From Octopus vulgaris (Eukaryota): 64,000 nt of DNA. Shown in pieces: positions 340 to 51,202 of this stretch (position 1 is the first letter of the stretch; every line of letters begins with the position of its first letter). The stretch is from NCBI GenBank assembly GCA_951406725.2, contig OX597816.1, forward strand, positions 102,672,001-102,736,000, read 5' to 3'. Position numbers and translations under genes: made by a program. The notes under the pieces are model-generated. The model was given only the letters and a program-made list of their open reading frames with translations. It searched no databases and was not told the DNA's origin.

Positions 340-880
340 AAAGACAACAGAAAAGGAAAAAAAAGTTTGACACATTAATGAAAGAAGAAAGCGTTACACT
401 GTTTCGGACGTTAGTCCTTCATCAGAACAAAGAAAGATTGAGCTATAGAGTGAGTGAGACAAAGAAATTATCACAGAACAAAATGAGTGGCAGATTAGGA
501 ACCGAAGAAGGGGAGGTTGCTTTTTATGGGGGGGGGGGGGTTAGATGGAAGCCAGTATAAGACTATATTAACATCTGGACGTGGGCATAAGCTGTAGCTT
601 GTGTCTGTTTTATGTGGTATGCGTATATGTATACAGGTATGCAAGTGCGGAAGTATATGGACGTTGGTTAGTGGATGTAGAGTATTTCTATGTTTAATAT
701 GTTTGCAATTGTTAGGTGGACAACCTGTATATAAGGAGGTGAGTTTGAGAGAATAAAGATATTGGTGAAGTACATAGGCTGGTAAGAGCATTGCCAAAGG
801 TATTGTTGATGTGTAGAAATGTTACTAAACAAAGAGGAAAAGCTTAAAGTGCGCGAATTTTGTGAAAAGAATAAGTCAAA
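340..880 (-). mobile_element. Decayed Penelope-like retroelement 3' region (possible GIY-YIG endonuclease remnant followed by hammerhead-bearing terminal repeat)
   Basis: The minus strand has weak C-T-S...LY(T/I)G similarity to the PLE GIY-YIG region (ORF 495..797 'SLYTG'), followed by a pyrimidine-rich tract and a hammerhead motif at 392-430. Protein similarity is weak and judged by eye. Confidence 0.4.
392..430 (-). ncRNA. Minimal type I hammerhead ribozyme motif (Penelope-type), stem I degenerate
   Basis: Reverse complement reads ttgtt CTGATGA A GGAC-taac-GTCC GAAAC agt GTA acg: intact core boxes, 4-bp stem II and a GUA triplet. Stem I pairs poorly. Confidence 0.6.
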
Positions 881-7127: not shown

Positions 7128-7663
7128 ATAGCTTGGATGTTGTGAATGAAGCACTGTGTCTTAAACAGACATAAGTGTCTTTAATATATACTTCTCTGAA
7201 ACAAAAATATCTCAGCTTGCGCCATTCCATGTTTGTTTGGACATTATAGAAGTTAAATGTATTGGTATTTTAATCTAAGTGTCAAATGCATGTATCAATT
7301 TAATTTTAGCTTCGTTGGTTTTCGCATAAATCAGTAAATGGTTCGTTTACCGATTTACTTACAGTCAAAGAACCGCTTATCAATGCAGCAAACAGAGAAT
7401 CTATGACGTCATACATCACATGACACATCTCCATCCTATCGATTGTTTTAATAACCGTTTTTCCACATTCCTGCATAGAAGCGTGAAAGCCTCGTAGGAC
7501 AGTAGTCACGGGCCAAATATACAAACTGTTCCAATATTTGTCGGGCGCTATTCATGAACACGTTCGTTTGTTCACACACACACACACACACACACACAAT
7601 ATATATATGTGTGTGTGTGTGTCTATTTGTGTGTGTGTCTGTAATGTTGCATGCAGTTTCCGT

Positions 7664-12311: not shown

Positions 12312-12315
<4 letters not shown>

Positions 12316-12490
12316 ATCCAAACAAGAAAACACAAAAAAAACACAACAAAGCGAGGACGTGGAACAAATATAGTATTATTGGACGCTCAGGAAAGAAGGG
12401 AAGAAGGAGGGTTTAACGTTTCGAGCGGAGCTCTTCGTCGGAAACATAGGAGAAGGAAAGATCCCGAGAAGGGAAGACAGAGGAAAAAAA
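12312..12490 (-). mobile_element. Short hammerhead-bearing Penelope-like terminal-repeat element between (TA)n arrays
   Basis: (TA)n on both sides; hammerhead at 12411-12445; homologous segments at 51032-51129 and 26699-26783. Confidence 0.8.
12411..12445 (-). ncRNA. Minimal type I hammerhead ribozyme (U4C variant in this copy)
   Basis: Reverse complement: gttt CCGACGA A GAGC-tcc-GCTC GAAAC GTT aaac. Stem I gttt/aaac, 4-bp stem II and palindromic ACGT stem III. The sister copy at 26699-26783 has canonical CTGACGA. Confidence 0.75.
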
Positions 12491-20709: not shown

Positions 20710-20862
20710 TCTCCCTCTCTCTTTATTTTCTCTTATTCCTTTCTGTTGAAGAGCGTAGGCTCGAAACGTAAAAGATTTTCTCACTTTCCCGAGCGTCAGA
20801 ACCATACAACTGCATGTTGTTCATACACCTGCCTTCGTCTTTTGTCTTTCTGTAAATTTCAA

Positions 20863-20863
<1 letters not shown>
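20710..20863 (+). mobile_element. Short hammerhead-bearing Penelope-like terminal-repeat element (sister family), 3' end abutting (TA)n
   Basis: Hammerhead at 20739-20774, then ttcccgagcgtc...ttgttc...T-rich tract...ttcaag, then (TA)n. Same layout as 12312-12490. Confidence 0.75.
20739..20774 (+). ncRNA. Minimal type I hammerhead ribozyme (A6U variant core)
   Basis: cttt CTGTTGA A GAGC-gtag-GCTC GAAAC GTA aaag: stem I cttt/aaag, 4-bp stem II, palindromic ACGT stem III, GUA site. Confidence 0.7.
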
Positions 20864-20898
<35 letters not shown>

Positions 20899-26698: not shown

Positions 26699-26781
26699 TC
26701 TTCGTCAGATACATAGGAAAAGGAAAGATCCAGAGAAGGGAAGACGGAGGGAAAAAAATCGCCAACGGTACACACGCGGGC

Positions 26782-26783
<2 letters not shown>
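26699..26783 (-). mobile_element. Upstream half of the hammerhead element family of 12312-12490, broken inside the ribozyme
   Basis: cttcgtcagatacataggaaaaggaaagatccagagaagggaagacggagggaaaaaaa aligns with 12433-12490; the other end abuts (TA)n. Confidence 0.8.
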
Positions 26784-26863
<80 letters not shown>

Positions 26864-50975: not shown

Positions 50976-51031
<56 letters not shown>

Positions 51032-51036
<5 letters not shown>

Positions 51037-51125
51037 ATCCTTCTTTCCTTCTTTCCTGAGCGTCCAATAATACTATATTTGTTCCAAGTCCTCGCGTTGT
51101 GTTTTTTGTGCTTTCTTGTTTGGAT

Positions 51126-51129
<4 letters not shown>
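51032..51129 (+). mobile_element. Downstream (post-cleavage) half of the hammerhead element family, inserted in (TA)n
   Basis: aaaccatccttctttccttctttcctgagcgtccaataatactatatttgttcc...ttgtttggattaac matches the reverse complement of 12312-12414. Confidence 0.85.

Positions 51130-51202
<73 letters not shown>

Follow-up and report, generated by a model that had tools for sequence, protein, structure and literature searches.

5' ends of a Penelope-like element in Octopus vulgaris accumulate just past its predicted hammerhead cleavage site

Introduction

The closest described relatives of the octopus repeat analyzed here are Penelope-like elements (PLEs) of the Neptune type, as characterized in the available portions of two reports (PMC4209133; PMC8557442). 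Shared features are a pLTR-ORF-pLTR arrangement, a CX4CxxC linker, (TA)n targets, heavy 5' truncation and an RT homologous to proteins with GIY-YIG domains. Both also carry a minimal type I hammerhead with an extra base before stem II, a G-C first pair and a palindromic stem III. PLE hammerheads are described as cleaving poorly in vitro, with in vivo evidence lacking (PMC4209133, available portion), and their function has been called unclear (PMC8557442, available portion). The octopus element differs from Neptune-type PLEs in that its 5' ends step up at the predicted cut, with a step that scales with the cleavage triplet, and in having a C at core position 4 in most copies and a ~2-kb microsatellite-rich 3' region.

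Three other systems offer points of comparison. The Poseidon element of the green anole (PAc; PMC11167929) resembles the octopus element, in the text accessible to us, in its internal priming downstream of the hammerhead, its AT-rich targets and its use of uncut RNA as the main template. That text reports that uncut RNA was the dominant template in vitro, that no RNA-seq reads ended at the cut and that insertion in vitro did not require cleavage. The priming site of PAc lacks homology to its target, whereas the priming tract of the octopus element matches (TA)n; the same text reports no genomic pile-up, whereas the octopus element has one. R2 elements with a 5' HDV-like ribozyme (PMC3774820, in the part available) are similar in that the ribozyme cut is the 5' junction of inserted copies. 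The R2 cut yields a full-length element, whereas cleavage of the octopus element would be a minor route to ~100-nt copies without the ribozyme, which also belongs to another class. Non-LTR retrozymes (available parts of PMC7229834 and 10.64898/2026.07.22.740005) have in common with the octopus copies a type I hammerhead, short and non-coding units and a link to PLEs. Retrozymes are described there as tandem 150-450 bp units with mostly canonical hammerheads and circular RNAs, whereas the octopus copies are dispersed solo pLTRs of a coding element.

If 5' ends step up at the cut, and more so with the canonical triplet, this would point indirectly to cleavage in the germline and to use of the linear product as template, and a 5'-end map is a cheap comparative test for other genomes. 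Our search of the openly accessible literature found no earlier map of this kind; subscription papers and supplements may contain one. Genomic 5'-end evidence on the role of the PLE hammerhead seems previously unreported; the element type itself is known.

A candidate Neptune-like pLTR in the octopus genome

The window, a 64,000-nucleotide stretch of O. vulgaris contig OX597816.1, contains a short solo pLTR copy of a Penelope-like element on the plus strand (51032..51129), which extends from the first base past the predicted hammerhead cut to a fixed 3' end. It is preceded by a (TA)n run (50979..51031, plus strand), whose last T (51031), like the A that follows, fits run and element alike. A second (TA)n run directly downstream (51130..51176, plus strand) is likely the target microsatellite and the primer of reverse transcription. 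The short copy aligns with positions 76-179 of another pLTR copy on the minus strand (12312..12490; 91% over 104 nt). This 12 kb copy is itself 5'-truncated, beginning at position 28 of the ~206-nt unit, and retains an intact hammerhead motif. A third copy (26699..26784, minus strand) comprises the 5' half of the pLTR only and is broken inside the hammerhead core. A preliminary description of the window had placed the start of the short copy at the predicted cut and had noted a 3' end in common with the 12 kb copy. Both points are confirmed: AAACC follows the (TA)n run, and the two copies end alike in GGATTAAC(TA)n.

Across the assembly (2.8 Gb, 227 contigs), 4,872 places match two exact anchors on either side of the cut, which is a lower bound on the number of copies. 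The unit is about 206 nt long and the cut falls after position 103. The first 254 loci comprise 249 distinct copies, of which 227 share one 3' end, followed nearly always by TA-type repeats, and 5' ends vary among copies; the family thus combines a fixed 3' end with variable 5' truncation.

Walking upstream led to a full-length copy (L272) in which direct pLTRs (2164-2358 and 7406-7611) flank an RT ORF, as in EN+ Penelope-like elements. Its parts are, in order, the 5' pLTR, TTTATATA, a leader, frameshifted ORF pieces with RT (RVT_1, E 1e-4, below the Pfam curated cut-off), ~2 kb of microsatellite-rich sequence and the 3' pLTR. A search with the RT piece gave 465 homologues at E<=1e-20, and GIY-YIG (PF01541) is present in 21 of the 120 listed. 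Two scanned copies gave no Pfam GIY-YIG match, the C-terminal parts of both seemingly being partly deleted, and a Pfam search with the C-terminal frame of L273 gave 0 matches. L273 contains a CX4CxxC linker, which fits the Neptune CX2-5CxxC motif (PMC8557442, available portion), and this linker goes together with microsatellite targeting in the form of (TA)n at the 3' ends. Judged from its sequence, the repeat is a solo pLTR, and the Penelope retrotransposon to which it belongs has (TA)n as its target and is "Neptune-like" by its linker motif and this target.

The preliminary description had envisaged a free-standing mobile RNA of 100-180 nt akin to a retrozyme, which is not supported because the unit is a pLTR and the element it belongs to encodes an RT. 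Classification as a non-LTR retrozyme was likewise rejected, since the copies read occur solo or as inverted pairs rather than as head-to-tail hammerhead units. The pLTR neighbors in L272 are separated by (TA)n, and the 150 listed of 240 tandem repeats in the window include no head-to-tail unit array. A variant of this idea holds that the ~100-nt unit is a separate non-autonomous RNA, either a retrozyme or a mini-SINE, with a short master of its own from which it was amplified. Many short copies do exist, and retrozymes have been reported as derived from pLTRs (10.64898/2026.07.22.740005, available part), but we find this variant hardly credible: the starts of short copies are ragged and spread over several haplotypes common to long copies, short copies lack most of the ribozyme, and no head-to-tail unit array was present among the loci read.

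Several structural features of the family were apparent along the way. A (CA)/(CATA)-rich stretch of ~2 kb lies between the ORF and the 3' pLTR (L272:5340-7400, L273 and L274) and is 83-90% alike among copies, which implies that the element spreads microsatellites itself. Inverted pLTR pairs occur at L017, L018, L156 and L374, one of them joined to the downstream leader; in the full-length copy, a further pLTR sits in the (TA)n behind the 3' pLTR (L272:7739-7945). In L095, L141 and L150, two short direct repeats within the pLTR bound an internal deletion that removed the whole ribozyme. Several of the (TA)n runs used as targets (L043, L048-L050) are tails of another abundant short repeat.

The pLTR contains a predicted minimal hammerhead

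Sequence inspection, a descriptor scan and the features listed in the available part of PMC4209133 locate a minimal type I hammerhead motif on the minus strand of the 12 kb copy (12411..12445). It has a 4-bp stem I, a C at core position 4, an extra A, a 4-bp stem II, a palindromic stem III and a GUU triplet, and the predicted cut lies between 12415 and 12414. The features expected of the minimal type I form are all present, namely the core boxes, stems I and II, an extra base after A9, the G10.1-C11.1 pair, a palindromic 15.2-16.2 and a UH triplet. Most copies have C at core position 4, a minority having U, and most have the GUU triplet. Our own hammerhead descriptor, run on 1.01 Mb of fetched loci, matched 122 distinct sites, compared with 0 in a reversed control; 120 of the 122 come from the pLTR family because the scanned loci were chosen for this element. 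The motif features and the descriptor scan support the Penelope-type minimal hammerhead that the preliminary description had claimed, and we class the pLTR motif as a minimal PLE hammerhead with predicted self-cleavage.

An Rfam search with 12320-12490 returned no hammerhead match and 2 unrelated matches at E>3. Rfam gave 616 matches on the whole window, of which the 150 listed are microsatellite matches to miRNA/snoRNA models, all below the gathering score, with no hammerhead among them. When monomer and dimer were folded, the active hammerhead fold was not the minimum-energy structure, and a PDB sequence search gave 0 matches.

The remaining two descriptor sites (L142, L314) belong to another family, with a canonical core, a longer stem II and a GUU triplet; the core is conserved and the stems are wholly different. 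The window also holds two more hammerhead-like motifs in other repeat families, at 20728-20870 (plus strand) and at about 380-440 (minus strand), the former with a similar tail followed by (TA)n.

5' ends accumulate just downstream of the predicted cut

DNA searches ranked by top match favor long copies, and the cut zone is invisible to them; when the 40 best matches to the 98-mer were followed up, not one of the 29 other loci fetched began exactly at the cut. We therefore mapped (TA)n-flanked copies with exact anchors, to which the following counts apply. Positions are numbered relative to the cut, +1 being the base that directly follows it; for (TA)n flanks, -1 and +1 denote the same junction. 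An anchor at +24..+42 with a (TA)n run within 60 nt gave 253 A-ended and 469 T-ended matches genome-wide. From the first 100 of each class, we fetched every locus on contigs C1-C3 and on the part of C4 that ends at 151 Mb, together some 28% of the genome, which gave 139 loci. Four were dropped (three internal deletions and one inverted junction), leaving 135, and 14 of the 5' ends were set manually because the alignment had extended into the flank.

Of these 135 ends, which span -34..+23, 86 fall in -1..+15 (5.7/nt), compared with 41 in the upstream interval -34..-2 (1.2/nt) and 8 in the downstream interval +16..+23 (1.0/nt), an excess in the zone over its flanks with p 4e-17. A two-rate fit with free edges placed the zone at -1 to +14 for all copies, every other left edge being >2 log units worse. 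The fitted left edge is -1 both for all copies and for the GUC set described below, which is the cut itself given the shared T, and -3 to +2 for the rest. The commonest 5' end is +7 (16/135). Exact-cut starts number 11, including the copy at 51032, against 10 at -34, where TAT provides microhomology. Copies do not usually begin exactly at the cut. The genome-wide plot of 5' ends that the preliminary description had proposed as a check thus gives an excess whose left edge is at the cut and no sharp peak at the exact cut.

The excess follows the GUC lineage

The GUC triplet cleaves better than GUU. Both are treated as cleavable and left unranked in the available part of PMC3138052, and our literature search found no paper that ranks the two. 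Among copies that span the cut, a 3' signature marks 8 of 12 with GUC, 0 of 124 with GUU and 0 of 1 with GUA, the signature having been derived from partly the same copies as those tested. It is present in 34 of 86 cut-zone copies versus 8 of 137 spanning copies (p 6e-10), in 6 of 41 copies that start within the ribozyme and in 0 of 8 that start downstream. Enrichment of the zone is 12.5-fold with the signature versus 3.3-fold without it (Fisher p 0.0045), and cut-zone copies belong to several haplotypes.

A search of this lineage with a 3' anchor only gave 265 matches, the first 100 of which correspond to 91 loci after 9 repeats were dropped. Among these 91, 43 start in the zone and none at -9..-2; by hand tally, the others start at unit positions 1-36 (37 copies), at 37-69 (2), within the ribozyme (5) or downstream (4). 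The search is only partly independent because most exact +1 starts escape it and some of its loci are also in the C1-C4 set. GUC is found in 37 of 43 spanning copies of the 3'-anchor lineage, and by rough scaling the zone share in other lineages is under a tenth. In the two-anchor search, GUC occurs in 7 of 100 listed copies, an undercount caused by a sub-lineage with ATA after the cut.

This GUC sub-lineage, with AUAC after the cut, accounts for 16 of the 43 spanning copies (L353, L362, L364 and others). Its stem I contains a U-U mismatch, and the cleavage site could be covered by a different pairing; the 5' part of this sub-lineage has diverged and the ribozyme core is unchanged.

Controls and other explanations of the pile-up

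Local sequence composition and processes other than cleavage could also concentrate 5' ends near the cut. One possibility is that transcription also starts within the pyrimidine tract immediately 3' of the ribozyme, which would give short RNAs without cleavage. TCT-type initiators are C/T-rich, and the cut zone resembles them in this; its breadth and its mode at +7 would also suit a start of this kind, and internal promoters are known from pLTRs (PMC6765202, available portion). Against it, the fitted left edge is the cut itself, a similar tract at unit positions 57-69 has no pile-up and the excess follows the GUC triplet lineage, and we regard a second start as unlikely. In a hand tally of T-ended junctions on contigs C1 and C2, a pyrimidine-rich control region (unit positions 37-69) has 16 starts in 33 nt versus 33 in 15 nt at +1..+15 (p 2e-7). 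A downstream control with another anchor gave 297 T-ended matches over about 63 nt genome-wide, a density that scales to roughly a third of that in the cut zone. Pile-ups are not unique to the cut, since a T-run behind the natural 5' end (unit positions 28-36) has 30 starts in 9 nt and is as dense as the cut zone.

A second possibility is that ordinary 5' truncation, microhomology joining to (TA)n and a lineage-specific bias together produce the excess, its match to the cut being coincidental. T/TA at the cut, with ATA there in one GUC sub-lineage, provides such microhomology, the TAT at -34 gathers as many starts as the exact cut, and microhomology suffices for the single copy at 51032. However, 25 of 34 starts with the GUC signature lie at +5..+14, where there is no TA microhomology, matching local sequence upstream has about one fifth the density, and the T-rich stretch at +16..+23 is at background. 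We consider this combination quite improbable as the source of the excess. Over the whole genome, an A-run control counted 54 starts at +1..+3 versus 9 at -7..-5, a ratio inflated by TA microhomology at +1 (absent at -7) and by the ATA sub-lineage, to which 24 of the 54, called as +3, possibly belong. The pair +3 versus -5, considered as a control of equal microhomology, was dropped on account of the ATA after the cut in this sub-lineage; the cleanest pair, +2 versus -6, stands at 11 to 4 (p 0.12).

Stalling and drop-off of RT at the 3' foot of a folded, possibly dimeric, hammerhead would place ends in the same location, stem I ending at +4. This is very unlikely to be the cause: RNA folding is no better than that of shuffles (z -0.43), most copies read through, and two GUU copies have a longer hairpin predicted over the motif than two GUC copies, yet the GUC excess is larger.

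A proposed model for copying of self-cleaved RNA

In our favored interpretation, the copy at 51032 is a 5'-truncated PLE pLTR, and the excess of starts 1-15 nt past the predicted cut probably stems from reverse-transcribed self-cleaved RNA. An endonuclease would nick (TA)n, and RT would prime internally at the TTTATATA tract of the upstream pLTR, which in L272 lies about 103 nt 3' of the cut. On uncut RNA, RT would pass through the ribozyme to near the pLTR start and so give rise to the frequent copies of ~200 nt; when copying the 3' cleavage product, it would exhaust its template after ~103 nt. A few bases would then be lost, through nibbling of the RNA or microhomology joining, leaving the smear from +1 to +15. 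A similar smear of starts is seen behind the natural 5' end. Uncut RNA remains the main template, and in an unselected set of 30 spanning copies, 18 begin in unit positions 1-4. It is likely, in this account, that self-cleaved PLE RNA is sometimes reverse-transcribed in vivo. Contigs X7 and X10, which are RNA only by guess, show the presence of element sequence but not its ends.

The preliminary description had read the copy at 51032 as reverse-transcribed from a self-cleaved RNA, while allowing for chance truncation of a lone copy. At the population level the pile-up just 3' of the cut is far above chance and favors this reading; for the single copy, the coincidence is no greater than TA microhomology could give. 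The copy is indistinguishable from a TA-microhomology truncation, and its origin from self-cleaved RNA is about evenly balanced because it carries the 3' haplotype of GUU-type lineages, where exact-site starts (5 outside the GUC signature, itself included) do not exceed those at -34 (8).

A broader view, which we put at an even chance, is that the genome holds a quantitative fossil record of PLE hammerhead cleavage. Nearly half of the (TA)n-flanked insertions of the GUC lineage would then derive from self-cleaved RNA, with cleavage shortening the element's own template and lineages with weaker ribozymes leaving more long copies. If so, the share of copies that start at the cut would be a read-out of in vivo ribozyme activity, applicable to any PLE family in any assembled genome.

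Two isolated cases touch on the cut position. The raw DNA runs X22 and X23 gave only 4 and 44 placed reads; in X23, three reads (two starts) on L272:7508-7551, too small a number to carry weight, contain a tandem joint leading back to roughly the cut position. One copy with a long upstream part (L258 / L275:6656-6657; G000:C2:103786850 region) jumps from unit position 9 to +1. This deletion, which ends exactly at the predicted cut, may reflect a template switch from the 5' end of a cleaved RNA; it is one case, with a 2-nt microhomology if the donor was GUC.
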